Shown: positions 9,808-35,282, counted from the stretch's first letter. The stretch: DNA of 64,000 nt from Escherichia coli (GCF_024298765.1 NZ_CP101210.1), one strand, 5' to 3'. The notes: a model not told the origin generated them from the letters alone. Program-made: numbers and translations.

Positions 9808-11003
<1,196 letters not shown>

Positions 11004-12346: not shown

Positions 12347-13763
12347 TTTTCTCCTGCGCCTGATGTTTCTTAAACCAGCTGCGGAAGCTCTCGCCGTCAG
12401 CATCAGGCAGATCGCGCGCCTCCATCCAGTCACCAATCGCGCCAACCTTGAGCGGGGTTTTGCCGCCATTGAGAAACCAGCTCGCCGCATGCGCGCCCGC
12501 CATCATCCCGACTTTCCACAGCCCCGGATGGCTATTGGCATAGGCGAACATCTTGATCGCCCGTCGCTCGGCTTTCGGCGTAATGCCCTCCTCGGCCATC
12601 ACCCGGCGATGACGCAGGATCAGTTTTGACAACGGAATACGCACCGGGCAGACGCTGTCACAAGCCGTGCACAAAGAACAGGCGTACGGCAGGTCTTTAA
12701 AATCTTTATAGCCGCCGAGCAGCGGAGAAATCACCGCGCCGATAGGGCCGGGATAGATAGAGCCATAGCCGTGCCCGCCGATGTGGCGGTACGCCGGACA
12801 GGTGTTCATACAGGCTCCGCAGCGGATGCAGCGCAGCACATCGCGAAACTCTGAGCCCAGCACCTGCGAGCGACCGTTATCGACAATCACCAGATGGAAC
12901 TCTTCCGGTCCGTCAACGTTGTCCGCCTCACGCGGGCCGGTCAGCCAGGTGTTGTAGCCCGTCAGACGTGCGCCCACGGCGCTGCGCGCCAGCATGGTAA
13001 TCAGCACATCCACCTCGGCAAAGGTCGGCGCGATACGCTCCATGCCCATCACCGCAATGTGCGTTTTCGGTAGCGTGGTGCACATGCGCGCGTTGCCTTC
13101 GTTGGTCACCAGACACACCGAGCCGGTTTCCGCCACGGCAAAGTTACAGCCAGTAATACCGATTTCGGCACTGAGGAAATCCTCGCGGATCTTCTGACGA
13201 ATGAACAAGGTCATAGCTTCCGGGGTTTCCGGGCCGTCGTACCCCAGACGTTCGTTCAGCACGCGGCGGATCTGGTAGCGATCTTTATGAATCGCCGGAA
13301 CCACGACGTGCGAAGGCGGATCCTGATCCAACTGCAGGATATATTCCCCGAGATCGGTTTCGATCACCTGGATTCCGGCATCCTGCAACACATGGTTGAC
13401 GCCGATTTCTTCGGTCACCATCGACTTGGACTTCACCACCTTCTGCGCATTTTTACTCTGCGCGACCTGCAAAATGTAGCGAGTGGCATCTTCTTTGGTT
13501 TTGGCGAAATAGACGTGTCCGCCGTTTTCCGTCACTTTCTCGGAGAGTTGGTACAGGTAAGTGTCGAGGTTGCTCAGAACGTGATCGCGGATCTGGCTGG
13601 CACGATCGCGCCATTCTTCCCAGTGGCCTAACTCATCGACCATTTTTTGCCGATTCGCGCCGATACGCTCCTGCGCATTAGCCACGGCTTTGCGCATAAT
13701 CGGATCTTCTATCTGCTGACGAATACGCAGTTTAAATTCTACATCGCTGGTTTTTATCGACAT
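12336..13763 (-). CDS. ykgF: LutB/YkgF iron-sulfur lactate-utilisation protein B
   Basis: 475 aa with two ferredoxin-type cysteine clusters (CIRCGACMNTCP; CSLCTACDSVCP). Confidence 0.9.
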   Translation of the reverse strand: MSIKTSDVEFKLRIRQQIEDPIMRKAVANAQERIGANRQKMVDELGHWEEWRDRASQIRDHVLSNLDTYLYQLSEKVTENGGHVYFAKTKEDATRYILQVAQSKNAQKVVKSKSMVTEEIGVNHVLQDAGIQVIETDLGEYILQLDQDPPSHVVVPAIHKDRYQIRRVLNERLGYDGPETPEAMTLFIRQKIREDFLSAEIGITGCNFAVAETGSVCLVTNEGNARMCTTLPKTHIAVMGMERIAPTFAEVDVLITMLARSAVGARLTGYNTWLTGPREADNVDGPEEFHLVIVDNGRSQVLGSEFRDVLRCIRCGACMNTCPAYRHIGGHGYGSIYPGPIGAVISPLLGGYKDFKDLPYACSLCTACDSVCPVRIPLSKLILRHRRVMAEEGITPKAERRAIKMFAYANSHPGLWKVGMMAGAHAASWFLNGGKTPLKVGAIGDWMEARDLPDADGESFRSWFKKHQAQEKKNG

Positions 13764-13773
13764 CTCTTTCCCC

Positions 13774-14493
13774 TCAGCGGCTCATCAGCACTTCAGCAAT
13801 ATGCATCACTTTGACCGGCTGGCCTTCCCGTTGCAGTCGACCGCCAATGTTCAGCAGGCAGCTAACGTCTGCGCCAATCAAAAATTCCGGCTTTGCGTCC
13901 ATCAGATGTAATACTTTCTCTTTCACCATCTCACCGGATATCTCGGCCATCTTGACCGAGAACGTCCCGCCAAAGCCGCAACAGGTATCCTGATCGGCAA
14001 ACGTCAACAGCTCCAGTCCGCGCACGTTTTTCAGCAGCGTAAGCGGCTCTTCCTTCACTCCCAGTTTGCGGGTCAGGCTACAGGAAGGATGATACACAGC
14101 GCGGCCCTGCAGGCTGGCACCAACGTCCACCACACCCAGTTTGTTGACGATAAAGGAGGTGAGATCCTGCATACGCGCGGAAACTTTCTCAGCACGCAGC
14201 GCCCATTCCGGTTCATCGGCCAGATACGTCGGGTAGCTTTTAACCGCGTAGGTGCAGGAGCCCGCCGGGGAGATAATCGGATCGTCGTTGTCTTCCAGCG
14301 CGGCGATCAGGTTTTTCATCCCGGGGATCGCCTCTTTGATGTAACCGCTGTTGATGGCTGGCTGACCGCAACACCCTTGCTTCTCGGGGAAATTAACGCG
14401 ACAACCCAGTTTTTCCAGCAGCAATACGGAGTCTCGTGCCATCCGTGATTTCAGTGCGTCACCAATACAGGTGACAAAGAAATTTACATTCAC
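13774..14493 (-). CDS. ykgE: LutA/YkgE cysteine-rich (CCG-domain) lactate-utilisation protein A
   Basis: 239 aa, MNVNFFVTCIGDAL..., CCG motifs (QGCCGQP, DTCCGFGG). Order ykgE-F-G as in K-12. Confidence 0.9.
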   Translation of the reverse strand: MNVNFFVTCIGDALKSRMARDSVLLLEKLGCRVNFPEKQGCCGQPAINSGYIKEAIPGMKNLIAALEDNDDPIISPAGSCTYAVKSYPTYLADEPEWALRAEKVSARMQDLTSFIVNKLGVVDVGASLQGRAVYHPSCSLTRKLGVKEEPLTLLKNVRGLELLTFADQDTCCGFGGTFSVKMAEISGEMVKEKVLHLMDAKPEFLIGADVSCLLNIGGRLQREGQPVKVMHIAEVLMSR

Positions 14494-14567
14494 AATAACT
14501 ACTCCATTGCTTCATTTCTGTTTATTGCGCTTGATATCGCGATATCAAACAAATGTTCATTCGTATT

Positions 14568-16265
14568 TCATGCCCAGTTTTTATGTTTGCTGGTTTTACC
14601 AATACCTGGATTCATAGTGTTGGTCGGATCATTTTCCTGATAAAAACGTGCCAAATTTTCCTGCGCTTTATACAGATGGCCGACATTGTGTTCCGCCGGA
14701 TATTGCGCTCCGCGTTGGCGCAGTAATTCCAGCATCTGTTCTTTTAACGCGTGGGCATCTACGCCTTTTTTAACGATATAATCCTGATGGAATACATGGC
14801 ACATAAAATGGCCGTAATAGAGTTTATGCACCAACTGACTGTCAATTTCCGCCGGTAAATGCTCATACCATTCGGTATCATTGCGGCGTAATGCAATATC
14901 CAGCGCGAGAATATCCTCAACCTCGTCAGAATGAACGGCCTGATAACGAATGGCAGCACCCGCGGCGGCAAAACGATGCAGAAACGCCTTACTGCCCTCT
15001 TCCGCGGTACAGGTAAAGAACGCGCCCTCGGCCGATTTAAAATAGTCCGTTAACCATGCCTGGGCTTCGGCCACACCCTCACCGGACATTTTCAACATCA
15101 GATGGTGTTCATAGTTATCGCGCCAGGTCTTCATCCGCGCCGGGAGATGGCTCGGGAACAGATGGCTAAAAGCCTGCATCGCGCGGTCGGTAAAGTGCGG
15201 GCGAAAGATCTTCACCTTCTCAAGTATGGCCTCGGTACGCCCCTTCAGGTTGAAGAAGAACGGCATTTTGTCCGTGCCAAGTTTGTCGATCATCAGGAAG
15301 GTATCTTTGCTGTATTTCTCTGCAATATCATAGATATCGCGGTGCATATACTCCCCAGCAACCGGCAGGTTTGTAAAATTCGCCAGGATGTGGCGGCGAA
15401 TCTCAGTCAGGACATCAGTCTGATTGGTACCGATATAAAAGACCTGCTGGTTCTTCTCGGCTTCAAAGGTATCCAGACGTACGGCAAACACCGCTAACTT
15501 GCCCGCACAGCCAGAGGATTCAAACAGGCGATCCGGGTCAGCGTTGTAACGTGCTGGCGTGTCGGCATTGATGTCCCGCACGCGGCTAACATAGTCGTGA
15601 TCGTGCGCGTGACGCCCGTCATGGTTGACGAGCACGGCTTCAATCGCATTGTTATCCAGCCGGGCAAGGATTTGCTCTGGCGTCTGACCTAGCTCAATGC
15701 CGAGGTGATTGACCAGCTGCAAGCGTCCCTGTTCATCAATACGGGCAAACAGCGACATCTCGGTATAAGCCGGGCCACGCTGGACCAGAGAACCGCCGGA
15801 GTTATTACAGATACCGCCGATAACCGACGCGCCGATGCACGAAGAGCCAATCACCGAATGCGGCTCACGGCCAAACGGCTTCAGCGCCTTTTCCAGCGAA
15901 TACAGCGTGGTGCCCGGATAAGCCAGCACCTGCTTACCCTCATCCAGCACATGCAGACTGTCCAGCCGCAGCGTGCTGATAATGACGATCTCGCGGTCGT
16001 AATCATTACCATTGGGCGTCGAACCCTCAGTCAGGCCAGTGTTCGACGCCTGCATCAGGATTATTTTATCGGCCTCAACGCAGGCGCTAAGGACTTTCCA
16101 GAGTTCAAGCAAAGAGCCGGGGATAACCACCGCCAGAGCATCACCCTGACCCGAGCGAAAACCCTTACGGTAACGCGCAGTTTTTGACGGTTCGGTGAGG
16201 ATATGAGCAGGGCCAACCAATTGGGTAAGAGTTGTCAAAAAGGTCTTATTATCAGTATGTTTCAT
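14568..16265 (-). CDS. FAD-dependent quinone-linked D-lactate dehydrogenase, Dld paralogue
   Basis: Long collinear similarity to K-12 Dld as I recall it (TARYRKGFRSGQGDALAVV.PGSLLELW..., NTGLTEGSTPNGNDYDR, HSVIGSSCIGASVIGGICNNSGGSLVQRGPAYTEMSLFARI). Start uncertain: M17 at 16265 chosen, the track start is 16313. Confidence 0.85.
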   Translation of the reverse strand: MKHTDNKTFLTTLTQLVGPAHILTEPSKTARYRKGFRSGQGDALAVVIPGSLLELWKVLSACVEADKIILMQASNTGLTEGSTPNGNDYDREIVIISTLRLDSLHVLDEGKQVLAYPGTTLYSLEKALKPFGREPHSVIGSSCIGASVIGGICNNSGGSLVQRGPAYTEMSLFARIDEQGRLQLVNHLGIELGQTPEQILARLDNNAIEAVLVNHDGRHAHDHDYVSRVRDINADTPARYNADPDRLFESSGCAGKLAVFAVRLDTFEAEKNQQVFYIGTNQTDVLTEIRRHILANFTNLPVAGEYMHRDIYDIAEKYSKDTFLMIDKLGTDKMPFFFNLKGRTEAILEKVKIFRPHFTDRAMQAFSHLFPSHLPARMKTWRDNYEHHLMLKMSGEGVAEAQAWLTDYFKSAEGAFFTCTAEEGSKAFLHRFAAAGAAIRYQAVHSDEVEDILALDIALRRNDTEWYEHLPAEIDSQLVHKLYYGHFMCHVFHQDYIVKKGVDAHALKEQMLELLRQRGAQYPAEHNVGHLYKAQENLARFYQENDPTNTMNPGIGKTSKHKNWA

Positions 16266-23463: not shown

Positions 23464-24918
23464 ATGATGGAGAGCATTAATAATCAAGTGCAGTCGGTAC
23501 GCCAGTTGCTGGCCATTCCCCAACTGGCCATCCCAAGCTATCAGCGACCTTACCGCTGGGGCTCCAAGAATATCTCGGATCTCTTTACCGATTTGGCAAC
23601 CCATCAGGACAAGAGCGCCTACCGGCTGGGCTCGGTGGTGTTTCATCAGCACACCGATAGTGAGCAGGGCGAAATGCTTGATATCGTCGATGGTCAGCAA
23701 CGCACCCTGACCCTGATGTTGACCGTCAAGGCGCTGATCGAGGTGCTGGATAACGAAAATCGCAGTGGCAAAGAGAAGAGTATCCGGTTTCAACGTCAGG
23801 ATCTGCGTGAGCAATTGCAGGTCTTGCGTGGACCTATCGATGCGTTTATGCAGCGCCAGCGCTTCCCCAGCCGGGATTCGGAGTTCAACCTCAGACGTAA
23901 CTATCTGGAGTTGCGTCGGCTGGTGGCCCGCCCTGAGTTTGACGAGCAGCAAATTGACTTTCTGCTCAACCGCTGTCAGGTGGTCTGCTTTGTACTGCAG
24001 GATATCTCGGAGGCGTTCCAGTTCTTCGATTCGCAAAATGCCCGGGGGCGCGATCTGGCTCCTCACGATCTGCTCAAGGCATTTCACCTGCGCGAGTTTG
24101 CCGGTCATGAGGCCAATCTCAAGGCCGAGGCGGTCGCCCATTGGGAGCGCCTGCCAAGCGACGAGCTGGCCAATCTGTTCGCCCTCTATCTCTATCGGGT
24201 ACGCCAGTGGGCCGAGGGCAAGTCGGCCCGCTACTTTGGCAAGGGGGAGGTGGATCTCTTCAAGGGGGTCAACCTAGATCGGGTAGGGCATTATCCTTAC
24301 GTGGAGTCGCTGCGCATCGCCCACCACTTTGTCGATGAGTACAACAGCCAGTACCAGCGCAAGATTGACGGCCAGTACATGACGTTTCCCTTTCATCTCG
24401 ACCAGATGATCATCAATGGTCGGCGCTTTTTCGAGATGGCCGAGTACTACCAGACGCGGGTGGCCGCCATCGTGGCCGAGGAGTCTGATTCCGGCAAGGC
24501 GCAATCTGCCACCCTGCTCGGCGAAACGCTGACACCGATGGCCAGCAAGGTGCTATCGACCCTGGGCAGCTACGAGCGTCGCCACCGCACCGGGGATCGT
24601 TATGTGCGGGCCATGTTCGACTGCGCCCTGATCTTCTATATCGACAAGTTCGGCAGCCAAGGGCTGTCACTGGCCATCGAGAAGTGCTTTATCTGGGCCT
24701 ATCGCTGCCGCATCCGCCAGCAGGTAGTGCAGTTGGCAACCATGGATAACTATGTGCTGGAGCACAATCTGATCCGTGCCATTCGTGATGCTCGTCTGCC
24801 GGGAGATCTGCACGGCTTCCCTTTGCCTAGCATGAGCAGTCGAGAGAACAAGAACAATCGCAATGGTGCCGAAGATGAGCTGGTCGGGCTGTTTCGGGAG
24901 ATGAAATATTATGAATGA
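23464..24918 (+). CDS. DUF262 (ParB/GmrS-like NTPase) domain protein without a recognisable nuclease domain
   Basis: 484 aa. [69 protein letters not shown] at 23456-23461. 8-nt overlap with the next gene. Confidence 0.8.
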
Positions 24919-26953
24919 TGCAGGCGTTCGCCCCTTTTCCATTCGTGCACTGCTTGAAGATCGCGCCCGCTATCTGGTGCCCATGTACCAGCGCAACTAT
25001 GCCTGGGGTGAGGGAGAGATCACCCAGCTGCTGCAGGATGTGCTGGATTATCAGCAAAAATTGGTCAGTGGTAAGGGGCCGCAAACCTACTATATCGGCA
25101 CCCTGGTGGTGTTTGCCCGGGACGATGGCAGTTTCGAGGTAATCGATGGCCAGCAGCGCTTTACTACCCTCTCTCTGCTGGCCAATTGGCTCAAACATCA
25201 CGCGATAGATTCGGTGGATATGAGCTGGTATCAGACCATCAACCTCGCTTTTGAGAGTCGCCCGATATCGAGCCATACCTTCGAGCGCTTATGGCAGGGG
25301 GTTGCCCCCGACGATTTGCGGGGGAGTACCTTCAATGAAGGTTTGGTGAACGGTTTTGAGCTGATTGGCAAGGCAATGGCGGAGCTTGGTTTGGTAGGGG
25401 CTAAACTGACGGCCTTTTGCGACTACCTCTTCAAGCATGTGCAGATCTCTCGTATCGAAGTACCCAAGGATACCGATCTCAATCACTTCTTCGAGGCGAT
25501 GAACAATCGCGGCGAGCAGTTGGAAAAGCATGAAGTGATCAAGGCGCGGCTGATGGAGACGCTGAACCAGATACCCGAGGAAGAGCATCGTCGCCAAAGT
25601 ATTCATATCCTGACCCGGGTATGGGATGCCTGCGCCAATATGGAGCGCTATATCCAGTACGGCTTTACCCCGCAAGAGCGCCACCGTCTGTTTGGTGAGA
25701 GCGACTGGGGTCAGTTTGTGCCCCGTGATTTTGCCCATCTGCTTGATCTGCTAGGATCCCCAAACACGGCCGACGCTGCCGATAAAAGCCGTGCAGCTGC
25801 CGGTAGCCAAGGGCGCACCTTGTTGGCCATTTTGCAGGATGACAAGCTTGATGGTGAGCAGACGGTGGAGGAGGAGAGCGCAGGCTCCGAGCGCTTTAAC
25901 AGCGTCATCAACTTCTCCAACTTCTTGCTCCATGTGCTGCGACTCGTGAGCCGCGACCCGGGTAATACGGAGGGGGTGCCGCTTGATGATAAACAACTGG
26001 TCGATCAGTTTGAGCTGCGAGTGATAAGGCAACCGGATCCAGTAGCGGCAGTTCAGCGTTTTATCTATGGCCTGTTAAAGAGCAAGTATCTGTTTGATCA
26101 GTTCATCATCAAGCGCGAGTTTGCCGATGGCAAGGATAGTTGGAGTCTGAAGCGGCTGCACTGGTATTCGGAAAAGAGCGTCAGTTACATCAATACCTTT
26201 GACAAGGATGAAAATGAGAATGGTTTCTCTGGTGTTAACCGGCGGGTCCTGATGTTGCTGTCGGCGTTTCATGTGTCGACCCCGACCCTGGTTTACAAAC
26301 ATTGGCTGAATGGTGCACTGAGATATCTGTTCGACAATTGTCACCCTGATCAACCGGTGGATGCCGGGGCTTATCTGTCCTATCTGGAGAGTCAGGCTCG
26401 CCGCTTTGTCTTCCAGCGCTTTTTAGCGCCTGGTGAAGGGGCTTCCTATTACCAGATGCTCTACCTTGATAACGCCCTGTTGCCCGCCATCAATGTGGAT
26501 GAGAGTTGGCACAAGGTGATTACATCCAAACTTCGCTTCGGTCATATCGAGAACAACTTTGTCTTCAACTTCCTCGACTATCTGCTGTGGGTACGAGATC
26601 GGAATAGCGACAAAGTTGCTGGCTCCTTTGAGTTCACTTTCCGCAGCTCGGTGGAGCACTTCTCACCCCAGCATCCGATGGATGGCTATAAACCGGTTGA
26701 GCAGAGTGCACTCCATTCGTTTGGCAACCTTTGCCTTATCAGCCACAGCAAGAACTCGCGCTTGAGTAACTTCCAGCCGCAACAGAAGCAGGAGCACTTT
26801 GAAGCAAGCCTTGCCAATAACCAGACTGATAGTCTTAAATTGCTTGCTATGATTCGGCTGATGAAAGATAAAGGTCGTTGGCTGGAAGATGAGATAGCTG
26901 TGCATCAACAAGATATGTTGCAGGTCTTACTATCCAATCAAATTCAGCAATAA
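24911..26953 (+). CDS. DUF262-DUF1524 fusion (GmrSD/BrxU/SspE-like type IV restriction enzyme family)
   Basis: 680 aa. N-terminal [59 protein letters not shown]-terminal His-Me-like [10 protein letters not shown]...[17 protein letters not shown]. Confidence 0.85.
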
Positions 26954-27023
26954 CGGATTGAATCTGTTGGTGATGCTGCCAACTTACTGATTTAGTGTAT
27001 GATGGTGTTTTTGAGGTGCTCCA

Positions 27024-27299
27024 GTGGCTTCTGTTTCTATCAGCTGTCCCTCCTGTTCAGCTACTGACGGGGTGGTGCGTAACGGCAAAAGCACTGCCGG
27101 ACATCAGCGCTATCTCTGCTCTCATTGCCGTAAAACATGGCAACTACAGTTCACTTACACCGCCTCTCAGCCCGGTACGCACCAGAAAATCATTGATATG
27201 GCCATGAATGGCGTTGGATGCCGGGCAACCGCCCGCATTATGGGCGTTGGCCTCAACACGATTTTCCGCCATTTAAAAAACTCAGGCCGCAGTCGGTAA
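27024..27299 (+). CDS. insA: IS1 InsA (copy B)
   Basis: 91 aa, near-identical to copy A. Confidence 0.95.
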
Positions 27300-27721
27300 C
27301 CTCGCGCATACAGCCGGGCAGTGACGTCATCGTCTGCGCTGAAATGGACGAACAGTGGGGCTACGTAGGTGCTAAATCACGTCAGCGCTGGCTGTTTTAC
27401 GCGTATGACAGGATACGGAGGACGGTTGTGGCGCACGTCTTCGGTGAACGCACTCTGGCCACACTGGAGCGTCTTCTGAGCCTGCTGTCGGCCTTTGAGG
27501 TCGTGGTATGGATGACGGATGGCTGGCCGCTTTATGAATCACGCCTGAAGGGAGAACTGCACGTTATCAGCAAGCGATTTACGCAGCGCATTGAGCAGCA
27601 TAACCTGAATCTGAGGCAGCATCTGGCAAGGCTGGGCAGGAAGTCACTGTCGTTCTCAAAATCGGTGGAGCTGCATGACAAAGTCATCGGGCATTATCTG
27701 AACATAAAACACTATCAGTAA
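27218..27721 (+). CDS. insB: IS1 InsB' frame (copy B)
   Basis: 167-aa frame, IS1 isoform. Confidence 0.9.
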
Positions 27722-27736
27722 GTTGGAGTCATTACC

Positions 27737-27964
27737 CAGCTCATCGCGCAGTGAGCCAAAATCCGCATCTGAAGCACGGTCAAAAAGGTAATCCAGTTTG
27801 CGATTTACGTCGCTCAGCTGGTTGGTAACTATTTTCAACCCGGACTCCAGATCACCTGGGCCAGCTTCAAGGCAGCGCCGCAGATACTCTGACCGATTAC
27901 CACCTGAAACCAGGTCTATATAGGCCAAAAGTTCATCTGATACTTTTGCGGTTATTGTTGGCAT
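27737..27964 (-). pseudogene. Ribbon-helix-helix protein gene (relaxosome-accessory/CopG-like), 3' end cut by IS1 copy B
   Basis: MPTITAKVSDELLAYIDLVSGGNRSEYLRRCLEAGPGDLESGLKIV... shows the RHH pattern (beta strand ITAKVSDEL, then RSEYLRRCL helix). Beyond codon 76 the track ORF (27656..27964) reads into IS1. Confidence 0.55.
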
Positions 27965-28145
27965 CCAGTCCTCACTTTGTGCATTTTTTAAACGAAAAAA
28001 GGGTGTCTAATACGGTGAAATCATAGTATTACCAAAGTAATAAATAAAAATTGTTTTAAATCAGTAGGTTAGATTAGATTTGTAATGCCTGGGTAATACC
28101 GCAGCATGGCTAAATTTGGTTTTTTTTCTTTTAAATCAGTTGGAT

Positions 28146-28163
28146 AGCGTGATTTATCACGCT
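28146..28163. repeat. Inverted repeat agcgtgat-tt-atcacgct (oriT-like IR)
   Basis: Perfect 8-bp arms, 2-nt spacer, followed by gcgttaggtgtatagc. Confidence 0.8.
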
Positions 28164-28265
28164 GCGTTAGGTGTATAGCAGGTTAAGGGATAAAAAATCA
28201 TCTTTTTTTGGTAGGGCGATCTCCGTAGGTTAAGGGTCATTTGGCTAAAAAGCGTCCTATTCTTT

Positions 28266-28289
28266 GATGGTCATGCTTGCATGACCATC
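28266..28289. repeat. Perfect 11-bp-arm inverted repeat gatggtcatgc-tt-gcatgaccatc
   Basis: Direct reading; lies just upstream of the iteron array. Confidence 0.85.
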
Positions 28290-28302
28290 TGAGCAACCAA
28301 AA

Positions 28303-28448
28303 ACTACAGATAAACTACAGATAAACTACAAAAAACGTTTTGCCTTAGTATTGGAAGACTACAAATAGACTACAATAAAACTACAAAGAAACTACAAAAA
28401 ACATGACAGACTACAAATAGACTACAAGAATACTACAGATAAACTACA
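28303..28448 (+). repeat. Iteron array: 11 direct copies of ACTACA on an 11-bp register (blocks of 3 + 4 + 4)
   Basis: ACTACA starts at 28303, 28314, 28325, 28358, 28369, 28380, 28391, 28410, 28421, 28432 and 28443. Spacings are 11, 11, 33, 11, 11, 11, 19, 11, 11, 11. Confidence 0.9.
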
Positions 28449-28456
28449 AAACTCGA

Positions 28457-28485
28457 TTGACCCCTTCTTACGAGTGTTGTAGAGT
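28457..28485 (+). promoter_or_regulatory. Candidate sigma70 promoter of the 128-aa gene, abutting the iterons
   Basis: TTGACC (28457-28462), 17-bp spacer, TAGAGT (28480-28485). GGAGGGGG RBS at 28501-28508, ATG at 28510. Confidence 0.45.
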
Positions 28486-28509
28486 CATTTTCATACAACG
28501 GAGGGGGTT

Positions 28510-28896
28510 ATGAATAAACCAGCAGATCTGAAACCCCGCAACTTATCGGCTGCTGTCAGATTGCGCCTAAATGAAATCGAGAACTGGCTGGACAGAGGGC
28601 TAACGCGGCATGAAATTGCTGAAATCCTCGACAGCGAATACAGCTTTTCGGTAACAGCCAAAGGGCTTGAGATGGCACTGTATAGAACGCGGCAAAACCG
28701 AAAAAATGTATTGCACAATACACATGATAAGAGTAGCGCGAAGGGTGCAGCGGAAAGTGTATTGCACAATACACAACCGTCTGAGCCTGAAGCGCAGGAA
28801 AGTGAAAAAGCAGAGAGTCCCGGCATTATTGATAAAGAATTCTTCAATAAAATCGGTGAGAATTTCGACCCTAAGAAGTTCAACAAAAAATTCTGA
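28510..28896 (+). CDS. Small HTH DNA-binding protein (StbA/ParB-adaptor-like position), function unknown
   Basis: 128 aa. Probable HTH LTRHEIAEILDSEYSFSVTAKGLEMALYR, acidic/low-complexity tail. Strong RBS, and iterons immediately upstream. Confidence 0.6.
   Translation: MNKPADLKPRNLSAAVRLRLNEIENWLDRGLTRHEIAEILDSEYSFSVTAKGLEMALYRTRQNRKNVLHNTHDKSSAKGAAESVLHNTQPSEPEAQESEKAESPGIIDKEFFNKIGENFDPKKFNKKF
28707..28773. repeat. Two copies, 51 bp apart, of the 16-bp near-palindrome TGTATTG-CA-CAATACA inside the 128-aa gene
   Basis: 28707-28722 and 28758-28773. The wider direct repeat is aa(a/g)tgtattgcacaatacaca, which encodes the NVLHNTH / SVLHNTQ protein repeat. Confidence 0.85.
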
Positions 28897-28904
28897 GGTG
28901 ATTT

Positions 28905-29091
28905 ATGAAAGTAGCGGTAATTAATTACAGTGGCAGTGTTCGTAAAACCTTAATTTCATCTTACCTGTTAGCTCCGCGCCTGACTGGTGCAAAGTTCTAT
29001 GCGGTAGAGACTATCAACCAGTCTGCTTCCGATCTGGGTATTGAAAATGTGACCAGTTTTAAAGGTGACGACTTCTCACGTTTGATTGAGG
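28905..29091 (+). pseudogene. N-terminal stub of a ParA/StbB-like partition ATPase, truncated at an IS1 end
   Basis: MKVAVINYSGSVRKTLISSYLLAPRL... resembles the deviant Walker A start of small ParA/StbB proteins, but reads GSVRKT where GKT is expected. The frame ends where the IS1 terminal repeat begins (29092). Confidence 0.45.
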
Positions 29092-29122
29092 GGTAATGAC
29101 TCCAACTTACTGGTAGTGTTTT
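29092..29122 (-). mobile_element. Solo IS1 terminal inverted repeat (about 31 bp remnant)
   Basis: ggtaatgactccaacttactggtagtgtttt compared with the reverse complement of the IS1 right end, ggtaatgactccaacttattgatagtgtttt (2 mismatches). No IS1 sequence follows. Confidence 0.75.
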
Positions 29123-29173
29123 AGCGAAGTTAAGTGACACAATAGTTTAATCTGGAGGAATTAATGAAGAGTT

Positions 29174-32113
29174 ATGAGTAATTTTAATTTTCTAACAGAC
29201 ATCAGCCCTGAACTCGCTCAATTTGGTAAAAGTGCCGAGCTGTATTACCATGATGATAAGCAGGTAGCACTAGTGAAACTTAGGTGTTTTACTGAAGTAG
29301 TCGTTGGGGAAATTTATTCACGTTTATCGCTAACCCCACCTGTTCGTGATGATTTATATAATCGACTGCGCAGCTACGAATTCAAGGACGTTGTCAGTGA
29401 TAAGGGAATCTGGGCCAAATTAGATGTATTGCGACATAAAGGTAACAAAGCCGCCCACTCTAGCAATGGTTCAGACGAGATTTCCCTCAATGAAACACTC
29501 TGGTTAATCAAAGAAGCTTATTTAGTCGCCCGTTGGTATGCTCAAGCTATTCTCAATAAGCCTATCACTCCGCCAGAGTTTGTTGATCCGGTAAAACCTA
29601 TCGATCATACATCTCGCTTAGAAGCAGAGTTAGAACGGCAACGTCAAGAACTCAATAAACGAGAGGCTGAATTAAAGACCCAGCTTGCTGATAATAGTGA
29701 TAAATATCAACAACAGACGAGTGAGCTAATAGCTCAACTAGACGAAAAAAACGACACACTTTCCAATGTAAAAAAAGAGCAAGCACTATTACAGATTGAA
29801 CTTGAACAAAAACAAAAAGATCTAGTCGCTTCACAACAAGCCTTCTTTGATTACAGGACGCGTGAAGAGTTTAAACAAGCTAGTATTTCATCAGCTTCAA
29901 GCTTTGATCTTGATATGGAAGTGACGCGCCGAAATATTGATATATTTGATTGCTTTGAAGGAGTAAGTTTAACTAAAGGTCAAAACCAAATAGTTAAGCA
30001 AATAAATGAGTTTCTAACCGATACCAAACAAAACGTATTTTTACTTAATGGTTATGCAGGTACAGGTAAAACATTTATAACTAAAGGAATTACTCAGTAC
30101 CTAGAAAGAATTGGTCGTGAATTCGCTATTATGGCCCCGACGGGGAAAGCCGCGAAAGTGATATCAGACAAAACAATGCAACCTGCCAGCACTATTCACC
30201 GCGTGATATACAATTACGACAACGTGAAAGAGTACAAAGTTGACGGTGTGGAAGGGTCTGAAACTTATCGTTGCTATGCTGACCTTAAAGTCAATGTAGA
30301 TACTGCCGAAGCTGTTTATATAATTGATGAAGCGTCAATGGTTTCTGACAGATATTCCGATGGTGAGTTTTTTCGTTTTGGGAGCGGATATTTATTAAAA
30401 GACTTGCTCAAGTACATAAATATTGACCACAACGATCATAATAAGAAAGTTATTTTTATTGGTGATAATGCACAGTTGCCACCTGTTGGAATGAATACGT
30501 CACCAGCGCTAGATGCCAGTTACCTTAAAGAAAATTATCAAGTCGCTGTGGCTTCAGGGCACTTGACTGAAGTTGTTCGTCAAAAAGGTGATAGTGGTGT
30601 TTTGAACAATGCTGCCATGTTGCGTGACGGTTTAGAGCAAAATCTTTTCAATAAACTGAAATTTGAAGTTAATGATCATGATGTATTTAATTTGTCCTCG
30701 GAAAATCTACTTAGCACTTATCTAGACTCATGTGATAGAAAAGTTAGCCGTACAGGAGAAAGTATTATTATTGCTTCTTCAAACCGACAAGTAGCTGAGT
30801 ATAACCGTTTGGTTAGAGAGTACTTCTTTACTGGTCAACAGCAAATGGTCGCGGGAGATAAAGTCATTTCGGTAGCAAATCACTATCGAGCAGACGCTTG
30901 TATTACCAATGGTGAATTTGGAATGATCAAGGAAGTACTATCTCCTCATTCTGAGTTGATTAGTGTTGACATTAGCGTCAAAGGTGACACTGGTGACATG
31001 GTTAAGCGAAAAGTAAATCTGAGTTTTAGGGATGTGATTCTAGGCTTTCGCAACGACTACGGTGAACCATTCTTCTTTGAAGCCAAAATTGTAGAAAACC
31101 TACTTTACAATGATCAGCCGACCTTATCGTCAGATGAGCACAAAGCACTCTATGTTCACTTTTTAAATCGACACCCAGAACTGAGACGTAAAGGTAATGA
31201 ACAAAAGCTTAGAATTGCATTATTGCAAGATCCTTATTTCAATGCTTTTAAACTTAAGTTTGGTTATTCCATTACTGGACACAAAGCACAGGGTAGCGAA
31301 TGGAAAACTGTTTTCTTACAGTGTCAAACACACCAAAAAGCCTTAACTAAAGATTACTTCCGCTGGTTATACACCGCTATAACGAGAACTTCTGGCATCC
31401 TGTATGTAATGAATCCACCTCAGTTGCGCTTAGGAGATGGAATGAAAATAGCAGGAGCGTACCAACCCAAAGCAGTAAACCTAGACAATTCTGCTCCTGA
31501 AGGCGTTGAGGTTGTGCGACCAAGTACCGAAGCAACGAACTCAGTAGCCACAGCGAAGTTTGATTTTCAGACTGACATCCCGCAACTTAAAAAGCTATAC
31601 CAACTTGTTGATGCATGTATTGAAGGTACAGGGATTACTGTAGTGGATGTCCTTCATTATAACTATCAAGATCGTTACATCTTGCAGCGCGGGAATGAGC
31701 AGGCTTCGATAAGTTTCAATTACAAGGGTAACTGGAAAGTGTCTGGCGTAAAGAGCATTACTCAAGATGGGTTCGATGTTGAACTCATGGCTTTGCTTGG
31801 TCAATTAGAAGGTACTTTGCTCGATGTACCTGAGCCTTCAAAGGATACTCAGTTCCATTTTTCAGAGCCATTCTTAGAAGAGTTTTATCTAAATGTAATG
31901 GATCAAATCAACAGTGTTGGAGCTGATATAAGCAAAATTGAATCTCGTTCATTTTGTGAAAGATATGCATTTGTTAAAGGCAATGAGTTGGCGGTAATTG
32001 AGTTTTGGTACAACAAGTCTAGCCAGTTTACTAAAGTTCAACCTATGCCTCAGCTTAGTAATTCCACAAGGCTCATTGACGAAATAATATGTCAAATAGG
32101 TGTGCTTCTATGA
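29174..32113 (+). CDS. Multidomain SF1B (RecD/Dda/TraA-like) helicase: DUF4145-like N-domain, coiled coil, helicase core, two tandem C-terminal repeats
   Basis: 979 aa.
- N-terminus ...KLDVLRHKGNKAAHS (DUF4145-like).
- aa ~145-235 heptad-rich (LEAELERQRQELNKREAELKTQL...).
- Walker A GYAGTGKT (nt 30050-30073), APTGKAA, Walker B YIIDEASM, IGDNAQLPPVG, TEVVRQ, C-terminal GYSITGHKAQGSEW and YTAITRT.
- aa 794-891 and 892-979 are related repeats. Confidence 0.85.
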   Translation: MSNFNFLTDISPELAQFGKSAELYYHDDKQVALVKLRCFTEVVVGEIYSRLSLTPPVRDDLYNRLRSYEFKDVVSDKGIWAKLDVLRHKGNKAAHSSNGSDEISLNETLWLIKEAYLVARWYAQAILNKPITPPEFVDPVKPIDHTSRLEAELERQRQELNKREAELKTQLADNSDKYQQQTSELIAQLDEKNDTLSNVKKEQALLQIELEQKQKDLVASQQAFFDYRTREEFKQASISSASSFDLDMEVTRRNIDIFDCFEGVSLTKGQNQIVKQINEFLTDTKQNVFLLNGYAGTGKTFITKGITQYLERIGREFAIMAPTGKAAKVISDKTMQPASTIHRVIYNYDNVKEYKVDGVEGSETYRCYADLKVNVDTAEAVYIIDEASMVSDRYSDGEFFRFGSGYLLKDLLKYINIDHNDHNKKVIFIGDNAQLPPVGMNTSPALDASYLKENYQVAVASGHLTEVVRQKGDSGVLNNAAMLRDGLEQNLFNKLKFEVNDHDVFNLSSENLLSTYLDSCDRKVSRTGESIIIASSNRQVAEYNRLVREYFFTGQQQMVAGDKVISVANHYRADACITNGEFGMIKEVLSPHSELISVDISVKGDTGDMVKRKVNLSFRDVILGFRNDYGEPFFFEAKIVENLLYNDQPTLSSDEHKALYVHFLNRHPELRRKGNEQKLRIALLQDPYFNAFKLKFGYSITGHKAQGSEWKTVFLQCQTHQKALTKDYFRWLYTAITRTSGILYVMNPPQLRLGDGMKIAGAYQPKAVNLDNSAPEGVEVVRPSTEATNSVATAKFDFQTDIPQLKKLYQLVDACIEGTGITVVDVLHYNYQDRYILQRGNEQASISFNYKGNWKVSGVKSITQDGFDVELMALLGQLEGTLLDVPEPSKDTQFHFSEPFLEEFYLNVMDQINSVGADISKIESRSFCERYAFVKGNELAVIEFWYNKSSQFTKVQPMPQLSNSTRLIDEIICQIGVLL

Positions 32114-33534
32114 ATGAGCCAGCTAATCGTACAGTAAATAATTTGAGAAAGAGCGGAGACCTGCAAGGGGCTTGGGAGTTTGGTTTTCAAGCGTTGCAGG
32201 CAGCTCCCCAAGATACTTACTTGAAAGGTGCTTTATTTTGGGTGTGTTATGAGTTTCTTAAGCACCAGCTTGAAAATCTAAATAAGCGAGCGAGTTCTTC
32301 AAACAACTATCGTCCTACTGATTTTGAATTTGAGCAAATAGAGAACTTGCTGCAAACCATAGTAAATTTAGATATTGCTACTGGCGGCCTAGAGTACAAA
32401 ATGCTGCTGGTTCAGTTTAAGAAGAGTTTGGAATGGTTTCCAACCTTGATTCACCTTGTGCTTCGACATCAAACTGTACTATTTGATGATGAGGCTAAAA
32501 CACCTTTTCAAGCTGAAAAAGGTGAAGTGCCAAGTTTGATGCTCTCAACAGCACGCCAAGTGGCGAGTGCATGGCTTAGAGCACGAGAGTATTGGCATCT
32601 AGATCTTAACCAAGTGATGGCATTTATTAACCAAACACGCGAGCAAGCCTCTGACACTAAACATATGATGTGGCTTGATTACGACCAAGCGAAGTGCCTT
32701 GTTGTTGCGGGCCAATACGATCAGGCTCGCGAACTCATTCTACCCATTTTAAGAAAGAAGCAAAAAGAGTCTTGGGCTTGGGGAGCGTTGGCTGCTACTT
32801 ATTCAAAACAAGATCAGCGTTTAGCAATGAAGTTTTTTGCTAGGGGAATAGTATCCGCACATGACGTTACTTTTAGTTTACGTTTATTACAGGGAATTAT
32901 TCCTTTATTACTTGCAAATCAACAGCAAGCTGAAGCCTCAATGTGCCTAAAAACGGCTATTGCGGCTTATCAAGCCCATGGGTGGAAGCTAAAGCAAGAG
33001 CTAGAACAGCTATCTATGCAGGCTTGGTATGATTCTGGTGTCGATGAGAAGCAACTGAGTCCTTTTTTAAACTCTATTTCTCACGACGCTTTAAATTACT
33101 TGCATGGGCCGATGGAGAAGGTTGTTGCTATCGTAGAGAATATCCATAAATCCGGTAAAGGCTTTCAAGTATTCGTAAATAAGTCGACATCACTATCAGT
33201 TCGCATGGGGGTTCATAAAGGTAAGCAGAAACCTCAGGCTGGTGACTATGTCGAGCTATCCGTAGCGAGTGTTGATGGAAACAAAGAAGTAGTAGCTTCC
33301 TCATCGTCCAAGCAAGTAGATATGGCTGATGTTTCGTATGTAGAGGGTACGCTTCGAATAGCACCCAAAGGCTTCGGATTTGTCGAGGATACTTTTGTTC
33401 CTCCCTTTGTTATAGGTAATTTAAAAAATGAAACAAAAGTCAGAGCACTCCGTATCATGAGTTGGGACAAATCTAAAGCTCGCCACAACTGGAAAGCGAT
33501 TAAGTTAACGGAACTAAATTTTAATGAAGACTAA
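32110..33534 (+). CDS. Helical-repeat (TPR-like) protein with C-terminal cold-shock/OB-like module; partner of the helicase
   Basis: Start taken at ATG 32110 (MNEPANR), forming an ATGA overlap with the helicase stop; the track start is 32089. The alpha-helical N-terminal 330 aa includes TPR-like segments (DYDQAKCLVVAGQYDQARELILPIL, WAWGALAATYSKQDQRLAMKFFARGI). C-terminus has ...KSGKGFQVFV... and ...LRIAPKGFGFVEDTFVPPFVI... (RNP1-like KGFGF). Confidence 0.75.
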   Translation: MNEPANRTVNNLRKSGDLQGAWEFGFQALQAAPQDTYLKGALFWVCYEFLKHQLENLNKRASSSNNYRPTDFEFEQIENLLQTIVNLDIATGGLEYKMLLVQFKKSLEWFPTLIHLVLRHQTVLFDDEAKTPFQAEKGEVPSLMLSTARQVASAWLRAREYWHLDLNQVMAFINQTREQASDTKHMMWLDYDQAKCLVVAGQYDQARELILPILRKKQKESWAWGALAATYSKQDQRLAMKFFARGIVSAHDVTFSLRLLQGIIPLLLANQQQAEASMCLKTAIAAYQAHGWKLKQELEQLSMQAWYDSGVDEKQLSPFLNSISHDALNYLHGPMEKVVAIVENIHKSGKGFQVFVNKSTSLSVRMGVHKGKQKPQAGDYVELSVASVDGNKEVVASSSSKQVDMADVSYVEGTLRIAPKGFGFVEDTFVPPFVIGNLKNETKVRALRIMSWDKSKARHNWKAIKLTELNFNED

Positions 33535-33591
33535 GTCACTTTCCGGCGAAATCGAGTTAGGACAGGCTCAAGAATTAGCCGAGGTCGAATA

Positions 33592-33688
33592 ATGGCAACC
33601 CGAGTAGAAATGATTATCGAAACGCTCAAGGCGAACCCCGACAAGAAGTTTACTGCTCGGGACTTAGCCAAAGAATTTGTGCTTCGAT
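33592..33688 (+). pseudogene. First 32 codons of a third operon gene (winged-helix/HARE-HTH-like N-terminus), truncated by IS903
   Basis: MATRVEMIIETLKANPDKKFTARDLAKEFVLR|IS903. GAGG RBS upstream. The pattern resembles N-terminal HTH modules of McrB-like and other restriction-associated ATPases (weak, short). Confidence 0.5.
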
Positions 33689-34745
33689 GGCTTTGTTGAA
33701 TAAATCGAACTTTTGCTGAGTTGAAGGATCAGATCACGCATCTTCCCGACAACGCAGACCGTTCCGTGGCAAAGCAAAAGTTCAAAATCACCAACTGGCC
33801 CACCTACAATAAAGCCCTCATCAACCGTGGCTCCATAACTTTCTGGCTGGATGATGAAGCTATTCAGGCCTGGTATGAGTCAGCAACACCTTCTTCACGA
33901 GGCAGACCTCAGCGCTATTCTGACCTTGCCATCACGACTGTGCTGGTCATTAAACGCGTATTCAGGCTGACCCTGCGCGCTGCGCAGGGCTTTATTGATT
34001 CCATTTTTTCTCTGATGAACGTTCCGCTACGCTGCCCGGATTACAGCTGTGTCAGCAGGCGGGCAAAGTCGGTTAATGTCAGTTTCAAAACGCCCACCCG
34101 GGGTGAAATCGCACATCTGGTGATTGATTCCACCGGGCTGAAGGTCTTCGGTGAAGGCGAGTGGAAAGTCAAAAAGCATGGCCAGGAACGCCGCCGTATC
34201 TGGCGTAAGCTGCATCTCGCCGTTGACAGTAAAACACATGAAATCATCTGTGCAGACCTGTCGCTGAACAACGTTACGGACTCAGAGGCCTTCCCCGGGT
34301 TAATCCGGCAAACCCACCGGAAAATCAGGTCAGCCGCCGCCGATGGCGCTTACGATACCCGGCTATGTCACGATGAACTGCGGCGTAAGAAAATCAGCGC
34401 GCTTATCCCTCCCCGAAAAGGTGCGGGTTACTGGCCCGGTGAATATGCAGACCGTAACCGTGCAGTGGCTAATCAGCGAATGACCGGGAGTAATGCGCGG
34501 TGGAAATGGACAACAGATTACAACCGTCGCTCGATAGCGGAAACGGCGATGTACCGGGTAAAACAGCTGTTCGGGGGGGCACTGACGCTGCGTGACTACG
34601 ATGGTCAGGTTGCGGAGGCTATGGCCCTGGTACGAGCGCTGAACAAAATGACGAAAGCAGGTATACCTGAAAGCGTGCGTATTGCCTGAAAACACAACCC
34701 GCTACGGGGGAGACTTACCCGAAATCTGATTTATTCAACAAAGCC
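33689..34745 (+). mobile_element. IS903 (IS5 family), complete (1057 bp)
   Basis: 18-bp inverted repeats ggctttgttgaataaatc (33689-33706) and gatttattcaacaaagcc (34728-34745). 9-bp flanks tgcttcgat and gttgccaaa do not match. Confidence 0.95.
33766..34689 (+). CDS. IS903 transposase (307 aa, GTG start)
   Basis: VAKQKFKITNWPTYNKALINRGSITFWLDDEAIQAWY...; recognised IS903/IS102 transposase. The track ORF starts earlier, at 33721. Confidence 0.9.
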   Translation: MAKQKFKITNWPTYNKALINRGSITFWLDDEAIQAWYESATPSSRGRPQRYSDLAITTVLVIKRVFRLTLRAAQGFIDSIFSLMNVPLRCPDYSCVSRRAKSVNVSFKTPTRGEIAHLVIDSTGLKVFGEGEWKVKKHGQERRRIWRKLHLAVDSKTHEIICADLSLNNVTDSEAFPGLIRQTHRKIRSAAADGAYDTRLCHDELRRKKISALIPPRKGAGYWPGEYADRNRAVANQRMTGSNARWKWTTDYNRRSIAETAMYRVKQLFGGALTLRDYDGQVAEAMALVRALNKMTKAGIPESVRIA

Positions 34746-35282
34746 GTTGCCAAACCTGAAATAACACTTAGCTGTGATGATTCGCTATTACCTACCGATG
34801 GCTTCGGAAAACATAAATTAAAAATGCCCAGAGGAGTACTATTATCGTTAGCATTACCCGAACGCCGTATTAACGGTTATTTATTGGTAAGAGCTACGTT
34901 CCATGGCAAGAGTTCATCAACAGGTTGGAAGGCCATTCCGGCAAAACTCTCAGTATATGGCGCAGATACCATTCAGACAGCAGGTCCCGCTCAGCCCGTA
35001 CAGTAGAGCGCCGTTCACTACCGTAATCGCTACCGAAGAACACATTGATTGCCCCTCAATAATCCTGCTGTTAACATCAAAATTGTTGGTCGGGCTCGAT
35101 TTATTTAATTGTGTAAACAGGGTCTCTCAGAGAAAGGCCCTTATGCATCACCTGACGTTAAAAGTCACTACACCCAAGATGACGTTCAAAGTGTCATAGT
35201 CCCCTGCGCTGAGGACAAAGCCACACGTTAACGACAAATCCACGCGATAACTTACGATAGTTCGGACATAAGCCCCCATAAT

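Follow-up and report, generated by a model that had tools for sequence, protein, structure and literature searches.

Positions 29174–33688 of a 64,000-nucleotide stretch of the Escherichia coli 2020CK-00188 genome (NZ_CP101210.1; we refer to this whole stretch as the window) hold two complete genes and the beginning of a third, all on the + strand. Gene A (29174–32113) encodes 979 amino acids, and gene B (32110–33534) encodes 474. B starts with the ATG at 32110, within an ATGA that it shares with the stop codon of A (a 4-nt overlap), and the two genes are translationally coupled. Gene C begins with the ATG at 33592, 57 nt past the stop codon of B, and is cut after 32 codons (MATRVEMIIETLKANPDKKFTARDLAKEFVLR; 33592–33688) by the insertion sequence IS903B. 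An original prediction, made from the sequence alone, had proposed that these genes form an uncharacterized conflict or defense operon. The three open reading frames (ORFs), the motifs that it quoted, the Walker A lysine, the ATGA overlap, and the cut by IS903 are all as it described, and so is the AT-richness of this DNA (the GC content is 0.38–0.43 over A and B, as compared to 0.51–0.58 at 23–27 kb, a few kb upstream). What changes is the identity of the genes. A and B are almost certainly an intact copy of a module that is already known as TOTE or PDC-M16, and C is the stump of a gene from a type I restriction-modification (R-M) operon.

Gene A encodes a long protein with four kinds of parts. 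Its N-terminal domain (amino acids 1–126; 29174–29551, + strand) matches DUF4145 in Pfam (amino acids 20–113), as had been predicted, and DUF4145 is a HEPN RNase-like domain; the motif LDVLRHKGNKAAHS begins at amino acid 83. Next comes a stretch of about 90 amino acids (roughly 146–235; 29609–29878, + strand) that was predicted to be a heptad coiled coil. It does lack proline and glycine and is rich in charged residues and glutamine, and from this composition it is probably a long helix or a coiled coil, but a crude heptad score rises above the threshold only locally. The third part, from about amino acid 256 to 750 (29939–31423, + strand), is a complete SF1B helicase core of the RecD2/Dda type, again as predicted. 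Within it, amino acids 266–745 match the Pfam families AAA_30 (E = 3.7e-26), AAA_19, PIF1, and UvrD_C_2, with a weak match to SH3_13, and profile searches of the PDB returned a few structures, with 9kwf, 8jx6, RecD2 (3e1s), and Dda (3upu) among the nearest. The motifs GYAGTGKT (beginning at amino acid 293, with the Walker A lysine K299), IIDEASM (383, with the Walker B residues D385 and E386), GDNAQLPPVG (430), and GYSITGHKAQGSEW (697) are present and the C-terminal motifs are intact, so that A has the full set of Walker A, Walker B, and UvrD_C_2 motifs that is expected of an SF1B helicase. The stretches G293–T300, D385/E386, Q434–P437, and H703–W710 are invariant. (We found 1,595 homologs of A at E ≤ 1e-10, and the full-length ones go down to about 40% identity.)

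The last part of A consists of two domains that had been described as tandem and as unknown. They are tandem: hhalign aligns the two C-terminal halves to each other as a duplication (probability 99.1%, E = 1.3e-18). However, they are not unknown, as both match PF22721 (E = 1.6e-41 and 140 bits, as compared to a cutoff of 27, over two stretches), which Pfam describes as a TATA-binding-like protein (TBP) domain of TOTE conflict systems. The first copy spans amino acids ~800–877 (31571–31804, + strand; the best stretch is 803–877), and the second copy, which is covered by the second PF22721 stretch and by the hhalign duplication, spans amino acids ~896–976 (31859–32101, + strand). The TBP-like assignment is thus a sequence-level one, made from the Pfam profile and the duplication.

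For gene B, the prediction of a TPR-like helical array joined to OB or cold-shock modules agrees well with an AlphaFold2 model (predicted local distance difference test score of 93.7), which contains a helical-repeat array and two beta-barrels. The TPR-like array covers amino acids 5–332 (32122–33105, + strand) and includes DUF7017, which Pfam matches at amino acids 188–327 (E = 3.4e-40). The strands of the model place the first S1/cold-shock-like barrel at amino acids 335–399 (33112–33306, + strand) and the second at amino acids 408–468 (33331–33513, + strand), and the KGFGF motif lies in the second. B also matches S1CSD-TOTE-2 (PF22707) above its cutoff (E = 3.5e-18, or 5.2e-19 when the C-terminal fragment is searched alone), and S1CSD-TOTE-1 matches the first barrel weakly (E = 0.042). 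Among 1.84 billion proteins, the family of B is modest in size, with 788 representatives (E ≤ 1e-3).

The original prediction could not map A to any named system. Two resources now assign both genes to one, and this is the outcome that the prediction had listed first among those that would count against it. First, both A and B match the PADLOC models of PDC-M16 (Payne et al., preprint 2024) end to end: A matches PDC-M16A (PDLC04472) with 1,348 bits over amino acids 2–975, B matches PDC-M16B (PDLC04480) with 833 bits over amino acids 1–469, and the two genes are adjacent. (The assignment is by matches to the hidden Markov models (HMMs) of PADLOC-DB and not by PADLOC's system rules.) The PDC systems are a set of 145 "guilt-by-embedding" candidates that were recognized by their location within BREX, DISARM, or type I R-M systems, and their authors call them untested (bioRxiv 10.1101/2024.01.29.577857). 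In keeping with this route of discovery, the closest relatives of A–B lie inside an operon for type I R-M, whereas the copy in the window is no longer embedded and retains only relics of hsdS and hrgA (discussed below). The name PDC-M16 denotes a prediction and not a characterized mechanism, and A–B was already catalogued under it.

Second, TOTE stands for TPR, OB, TBP, and effector, according to a 2025 preprint on YprA (PMC12458937), with reference to Aravind, Iyer & Burroughs 2022. A–B has each of the four parts in this name: a TPR protein, OB (S1/cold-shock-like) domains that are fused to it, the TBP-like domains, and effector-type domains (HEPN and SF1B helicase) that are linked to this core, with both genes in one operon. 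The TOTE models of Pfam (PF22721, PF22707, and PF22708 are the ones cited) match above their cutoffs, except for the weak S1CSD-TOTE-1. We found nothing that would separate A–B from TOTE systems. There is a difference in the effectors, as the citing preprint describes RNase H domains as frequent in TOTE systems (PMC12458937), and A–B has HEPN and an SF1B helicase instead.

The HEPN domain also bears on another claim, which is that neither A nor B has an obvious nuclease and that the effector was either lost with gene C or something new. A paper from 2013 brought DUF4145 into the HEPN RNase superfamily and also lists fusions of DUF4145 to "UvrD helicase (endoV alpha subunit)"-type helicases (PMC3710099); the fusion in A is of the same kind. 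The N-terminal domain of A has the four-helix, up-down fold of HEPN domains. (This took a fold search, because a profile search of the PDB by sequence with this domain gave only insignificant matches, to AbiV, with E = 0.36.) Its motif is R87-x3-N91-x3-H95, or R-x7-H, and all three of these residues are invariant in 41 of 41 full-length homologs, down to 40% identity, as are R37 and E41. A precedent is RAZR (PD-T7-4), a DUF4145 protein that cleaves single-stranded RNA, leads to abortive infection, and requires R146 and H154 for defense (PMC13017515); these two residues have the same spacing as R87 and H95. Another HEPN protein, RnlA, uses R255 and E258 besides its R-x4-H motif, and its TBP-like domains are required for substrate binding by its own HEPN RNase (PMC8266594). 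By analogy, we infer that R37 and E41 of A resemble the R255/E258 pair. A thus carries a predicted RNA-cutting domain, and with a HEPN domain in A, no effector has to be sought in the missing part of gene C. Whether this RNase is the killing activity of A–B is a closer call, and we lean only slightly towards thinking that it is.

We then consider how A and B are arranged in other genomes. The set of loci is the best 80 of 412 relatives of A that came from scanning a single genome of each species. They come from Gamma-, Beta-, and Alphaproteobacteria, Desulfobacterota-type bacteria, Campylobacterota, and Bacteroidota, as well as from metagenome-assembled genomes that are labeled as Chloroflexota, Actinomycetota, and Clostridia. 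(The loci were found from alignments of A, and B was detected by our own ORF calling and HMMs.) In 75 of the 80 loci there was enough downstream DNA to judge, and in 67 of these 75, the gene directly 3' of A on its own strand is a B homolog (median gap, −1 nt). A B homolog is nearby in another 3 and undetected in 5. So, the co-location of A and B, which the original prediction had proposed as a check, holds up. The 72 B homologs are also consistent in their domains, with DUF7017 in 71, S1CSD-TOTE-2 in 60, and S1CSD-TOTE-1 in 43. Gene A is more variable: 52 homologs have the HEPN head, and 26 are short (about 710–790 amino acids) and start at the helicase. Therefore HEPN is not a universal effector, and, as judged from domain content, the conserved core is an SF1B helicase with two TBP-like domains, together with a TPR protein with two OB barrels. 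By the same evidence, the HEPN domain and linker are an accessory feature of a large clade that is mainly proteobacterial.

Among the HEPN-less variants, we note nine (L064, L068, L070, L073, L074, L079, L081, L083, and L084, from Bacteroidota and others) in which A has about 700–765 amino acids and the partner B has 850–890, with additional N-terminal TPRs. Indeed, when the long B proteins of HEPN-less systems (630–888 amino acids) were searched for an effector, Pfam gave extra TPRs only, and we found no recognizable nuclease in either the HEPN-less A proteins or the long B variants.

Beyond the pair, the two nearest genes on each side differ from locus to locus. Among them are integrases, McrBC, LeoA/BC, SoFic, LmuA (Lamassu), PD-T4-1, DRT, Avs, DruE (Druantia), ZorA (Zorya), and type I R-M genes. 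That the neighbors are often defense genes or integrases upholds the idea that A–B is a conflict- or defense-type module, and it fits with A–B being a self-contained cassette of defense and mobilome neighborhoods. No downstream gene family recurs across the 80 loci. We also considered membership in conjugative-transfer or relaxase operons, which had been raised as an alternative, and rejected it, as there was a single TraH/TraF neighbor among about 270 neighbor genes.

Gene C had been taken to be the third gene of the operon. Instead, it is the first 32 codons of hrgA, which belongs to a type I R-M operon. The 150 nt at 33539–33688 match junctions between restriction endonuclease subunit S and HrgA in Vibrio, Proteus, and Shewanella plasmids. 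On the Proteus plasmid pZF2-cfr, the operon is hsdM-hsdS-hrgA-hsdR, without A–B. In Shewanella sp. LC6, the order is hsdS-A-B-hrgA-hsdR, with an annotated and intact hrgA. In S. chilikensis, where the locus is 97.2% identical in DNA to positions 29150–33688 of the window, a homologous hrgA-type ORF lies 3' of B. An E. marmotae plasmid has stbA-A-B-hrgA-hsdR', where hrgA is longer than in the window but frameshifted, and where other insertion sequences interrupt the operon farther downstream. Across the set of loci, an HrgA homolog is found 3' of B only in L003, L005, and (frameshifted) L086. Finally, the copy on an IncC plasmid shares only positions 29126–33536 with the window; it ends 2 nt past the stop codon of B and has no hrgA. 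Taken together, these alignments indicate that gene C is what is left of a gene from a type I operon and not a component of TOTE.

The edges of the cassette can be placed on both sides. On the left, the 48 nt at 29126–29173 (+ strand) are a relic of the 3' end of hsdS that also includes the ribosome-binding site of A (GGAGGA), and the identity to the IncC copy starts at 29126. These 48 nt align with the 3' end of the annotated hsdS upstream of A in Shewanella LC6 and with the 3' end of an unannotated ORF upstream of A in S. chilikensis (...LSGEIEVS...*). On the right, the 54 nt at 33539–33592 (+ strand) are another relic of the 3' end of hsdS (...LSGEIELGQAQELAEVE*), whose stop codon overlaps the start of hrgA, and they align with the junction between the end of hsdS and the start of hrgA on the Proteus plasmid without A–B. 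We observed the same bracketing by diverged hsdS 3' ends (...LSGEIEL/V...) in L003, at 9930–10007 and 14356–14425. This suggests, from sequence comparison, that recombination at the 3' end of hsdS may move A–B into type I operons or exchange it among them. Shewanella LC6 has the cassette between hsd genes within an intact type I operon, and the window does not. As for hrgA itself, it is an uncharacterized gene that is embedded between hsdS and hsdR of the type I R-M operon, and the HrgA protein of L003 (14426–15361, 311 amino acids) had no match in Pfam, NCBIfam, or PADLOC.

In the window, the cassette lies in a block of plasmid-derived DNA. The left end of the block is an IS1 (26969–27736, 768 bp) with the InsA and InsB ORFs, which matches the IS1 of the plasmid loci L002, L085, and L086. 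To its right are stbA (28510–28896, + strand), a plasmid stabilization gene (NCBIfam StbA_2, E = 2.5e-61; also stbA in RefSeq) that is a remnant of the plasmid backbone and not part of the system, and a 63-amino-acid fragment of stbB (stbB', 28905–29096, + strand; NCBIfam StbB, E = 5.1e-22, profile positions 1–61 of 233). At the right end is the IS903B that truncates hrgA (33689–34745, 1057 bp), with inverted repeats at 33689–33721 and 34713–34745 and a transposase ORF at 33721–34689. It lacks the 9-bp target-site duplication, as the flanks are TGCTTCGAT (33680–33688) and GTTGCCAAA (34746–34754). Therefore, the rest of hrgA and hsdR were lost by a rearrangement that was mediated by the insertion sequence (deletion or recombination) rather than by a simple insertion. 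The entire region at 26969–34745 is colinear with an IncR plasmid of K. pneumoniae (locus L085), with 98.3% identity over 7,801 nt, and this 7.8-kb plasmid fragment sits within a chromosomal island at a tRNA-Thr gene. We looked for a promoter 5' of A and found none above chance; promoter-like sites were present only upstream of stbA, and their counts were below what was expected from shuffled sequences.

The island lies at the tRNA-Thr by proA, beside YfjI-like and inovirus-Gp2-like genes. We take this tRNA to be thrW, the attachment site of CP4-6 and not of CP4-57. The original prediction had instead put A–B in a cargo position like that of CP4-57, by a yfjJ/yagK-like gene. Since A–B arrived in the IS1–IS903 block, its adjacency to the yagK-like gene is secondary. 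The prediction had also placed a GmrSD-like pair within 10–25 kb. This pair (two adjacent DUF262-domain genes, GmrSD-like according to RefSeq, at 23467–26953) is closer than that: it ends 15 nt before IS1 and just 2.2 kb upstream of A, on the other side of IS1. To account for this arrangement, we propose that the cassette first sat inside a type I R-M operon of the Shewanella type, between its hsdS and hrgA genes, and was then captured beside stbA-stbB' on an enterobacterial plasmid. The IS1–IS903 block would then have carried the cassette into this chromosome, with the stump of hrgA left over.

How might A–B work? We propose that the OB barrels of B and the pair of TBP-like domains of A bind single-stranded or hybrid nucleic acid of an invading phage or plasmid, with the TPR array as the likely docking surface that holds B on A. 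The SF1B helicase would load on single-stranded DNA (ssDNA) of the invader and translocate 5' to 3', as a sensor or a licensing step. (In the HEPN-less relatives, the helicase itself may be the output.) The linker would then pair two HEPN domains, as HEPN RNases require a composite site that is formed by two HEPN domains (PMC13017515, PMC8266594). Once the composite active site is formed, RNA would be cut and translation would stop, leading to abortive infection, as for the DUF4145 RNase RAZR.

Overall, the best explanation for our observations is that A–B is a TOTE-type conflict module with the mechanism and history that we have proposed, to which we give a probability of roughly 0.6. That A–B has a real function in defense is, we think, probable. 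Several points weigh against this explanation. The defense role is based on genomic association only, and our searches of the literature found no experimental test of any TOTE or PDC-M16 member. We infer all of the biochemistry: the A–B complex, nucleic-acid binding, the polarity of the helicase, and the RNase activity. The spacing of the motif in A is R-x7-H, as compared to R-x4-6-H in canonical HEPN domains. And 26 of the 80 A homologs lack both the HEPN domain and the linker, while their B partners add only TPRs.

Comparison to better-known systems shows likenesses to several of them. RAZR, which is a validated abortive-infection nuclease of single-stranded RNA, has the DUF4145 HEPN family and the R-x7-H motif in common with A. 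However, RAZR is a single small zinc-finger protein that is activated by assembling around phage ring proteins (PMC13017515), whereas A has no zinc finger and does have a helicase, TBP-like domains, and a TPR-OB partner. The sequence match between RAZR and A is not significant beyond the level of the Pfam family. The toxins RnlA and LsoA combine two TBP-like domains with a HEPN RNase (PMC8266594). Their likeness to A is one of domain description: the order of the domains is reversed and A has an SF1B helicase inserted. These toxins are held by an RnlB-type antitoxin, and, by analogy, A–B may be controlled by its TPR-OB partner. TALON shares a TPR-CSD gene and a TBP protein with A–B (PMC12458937), but its helicase is of the YprA family (SF2) and comes with a NERD nuclease, and it is largely confined to Chloroflexota, while the helicase of A is SF1B.

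We considered four other explanations for A–B. The first is that A–B serves mainly in competition among mobile elements and acts against conjugative or transforming ssDNA rather than phage. SF1B helicases and OB or cold-shock domains act on single strands, which suits such a role, and this lineage is found on IncR, IncC, IncY, and other plasmids. Also, Ishtar, a DUF4145/HEPN protein family, was reported to block RP4 conjugation (bioRxiv 10.64898/2026.07.06.735840). On the other hand, a survey of 72,556 plasmid records found only 54 with the module, all at least 96% identical, which amounts to one near-clonal lineage, and most members of the family are chromosomal and lie beside anti-phage systems. 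We consider this explanation to be unlikely, albeit the least unlikely of the four.

The second is that A–B is not autonomous but a functional accessory of type I R-M systems, acting as a guardian like PrrC, with its HEPN RNase held or fired via the Hsd complex. PrrC itself is an anticodon nuclease of the ABC-ATPase type, and its activity depends on Hsd proteins. PrrC-EcoprrI, in which an RNase-bearing gene lies between hsd genes, is the classic embedded system (bioRxiv 10.1101/2024.01.29.577857), and the PDC set was itself defined via embedding in such systems. The closest relatives of A–B are in the order hsdS-A-B-hrgA-hsdR, and the cassette has hsdS 3'-end sequence on both sides. Furthermore, amino acids 1–256 of A are homologous to the N terminus of the HsdR family NF008521 (NCBIfam, E = 2.4e-28), and in four loci, an HsdR of this kind lies a few kb upstream of A. 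However, most A–B loci lie apart from type I systems: hsdS or hsdM is directly upstream in 4 loci and hsdR is directly downstream in 4, or just ~4 of ~75 in either case. The HsdR that adjoins A–B in Shewanella LC6 has no similarity to A. Finally, no intact type I system is linked to the IncC, IncR, or chromosomal copies, and yet their A and B are intact and over 99% identical. So, a role as a type I accessory seems doubtful, slightly more so than a role against plasmids.

The HsdR-like ORFs in those four loci have 1133–1187 amino acids and lie 3.5–6 kb upstream of A–B (L016 2628–6191, L028 2853–6410, L044 248–3652, and L052 1459–4860), and their N-terminal 200–280 amino acids or so match the HEPN-plus-linker head of A. 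In L016, the ORF and the local A are 36% identical over 139 amino acids, including the R..GN..H motif. As the identity is only 36%, there was no recent exchange of heads between HsdR and A. (We also considered whether the N terminus of A was copied from the adjacent HsdR in Shewanella, and rejected this, as the two have no similarity.) A more speculative idea is that the HEPN and long-helix head that is common to A and to this class of HsdR is a portable fail-safe RNase on DNA translocases. A–B would then be the first helicase-gated HEPN RNase: its SF1B motor and its TBP-like and OB sensors would detect ssDNA of the invader, RNA-DNA hybrids, or a stalled or inhibited neighboring restriction complex, and would then license the dimerization of HEPN domains, resulting in abortive infection at the level of RNA. 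We think that this idea is a long shot.

Third, A could be a housekeeping or plasmid-maintenance helicase, similar to RecD2 and involved in repair or replication, with an RNA-binding partner and no conflict function. A shares the core motifs and the SH3-like insert with RecD2 and Dda, it partially matches the RecD2/RecD models (TIGR01448, E = 6.1e-43), and it is close to stbA in the window. However, the TIGR01448 score of 147 bits is far under the equivalog cutoff of 500, and A has HEPN, linker, and TBP-like domains that RecD2 and Dda do not; HEPN is a toxin-type domain. Also, the pair is patchy in distribution, AT-rich, foreign to its host, and found in islands with integrases and defense genes, and since stbB is truncated, the linkage to stb is a scar of rearrangement. 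This explanation is very improbable.

Fourth, a three-gene operon with its effector in the lost part of C, which the same strand and close spacing of C, its truncation by IS903, and the contiguity of A, B, and hrgA in two Shewanella loci and one E. marmotae plasmid might suggest, is refuted by synteny and has scarcely any chance of being right, as hrgA directly follows hsdS in type I operons without A–B, the IncC copy lacks hrgA, the E. marmotae hrgA is frameshifted, no downstream family recurs, and A already contains HEPN.

Returning to A–B as a TOTE-type module, it is a well-preserved copy of a known candidate system, for which we found no experimental characterization. Because the family was already catalogued, the value of the finding is practical rather than conceptual: a TOTE/PDC-M16 representative that is native to E. 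coli is available, with near-clonal copies that clinical Klebsiella and E. coli carry on IncR, IncC, and other plasmids. About 50 plasmids in PLSDB carry the module (from Klebsiella, Escherichia, Enterobacter, and Salmonella), as do 41 of 5,426 complete E. coli genomes, on both chromosomes and plasmids, and the A and B ORFs are intact and over 99% identical in these ~50 plasmids and 41 genomes. Natural targets for mutation are the HEPN residues R87 and H95, the Walker A lysine K299, and KGFGF in the second OB barrel, and the third gene can be ignored. If A–B is protective, then a helicase-linked HEPN RNase would be added to the known mechanisms of defense, and the module would be relevant to phage therapy and to plasmid ecology in Enterobacterales.

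We also made some minor observations. In the window, the IS1-to-IS903B block also contains an RHH-like ORF (27656–27964, − strand). In L065 (11809–13152), L075 (12318–12767), and L082 (12399–12905), the ORF directly 3' of the TOTE-type helicase has no match in Pfam and was not recognized as B; it might be a partner that has diverged from B or replaces it. On the Shewanella (L003 6303–6899) and Proteus (L087 2363–2959) plasmids, a short gene of 597 nt for a tyrosine recombinase lies upstream of the hsdM-hsdS-(A-B)-hrgA-hsdR operon, in divergent orientation, and it may encode a recombinase that shuffles hsdS. Lastly, a survey of 50,697 phage records gave a single weak match, and the record MT835724.1 (an unannotated "Bacteriophage sp." contig from human feces) encodes a distant B-like protein at 13492–14886, which covers 93% of B at 22.6% identity (E = 5e-16).

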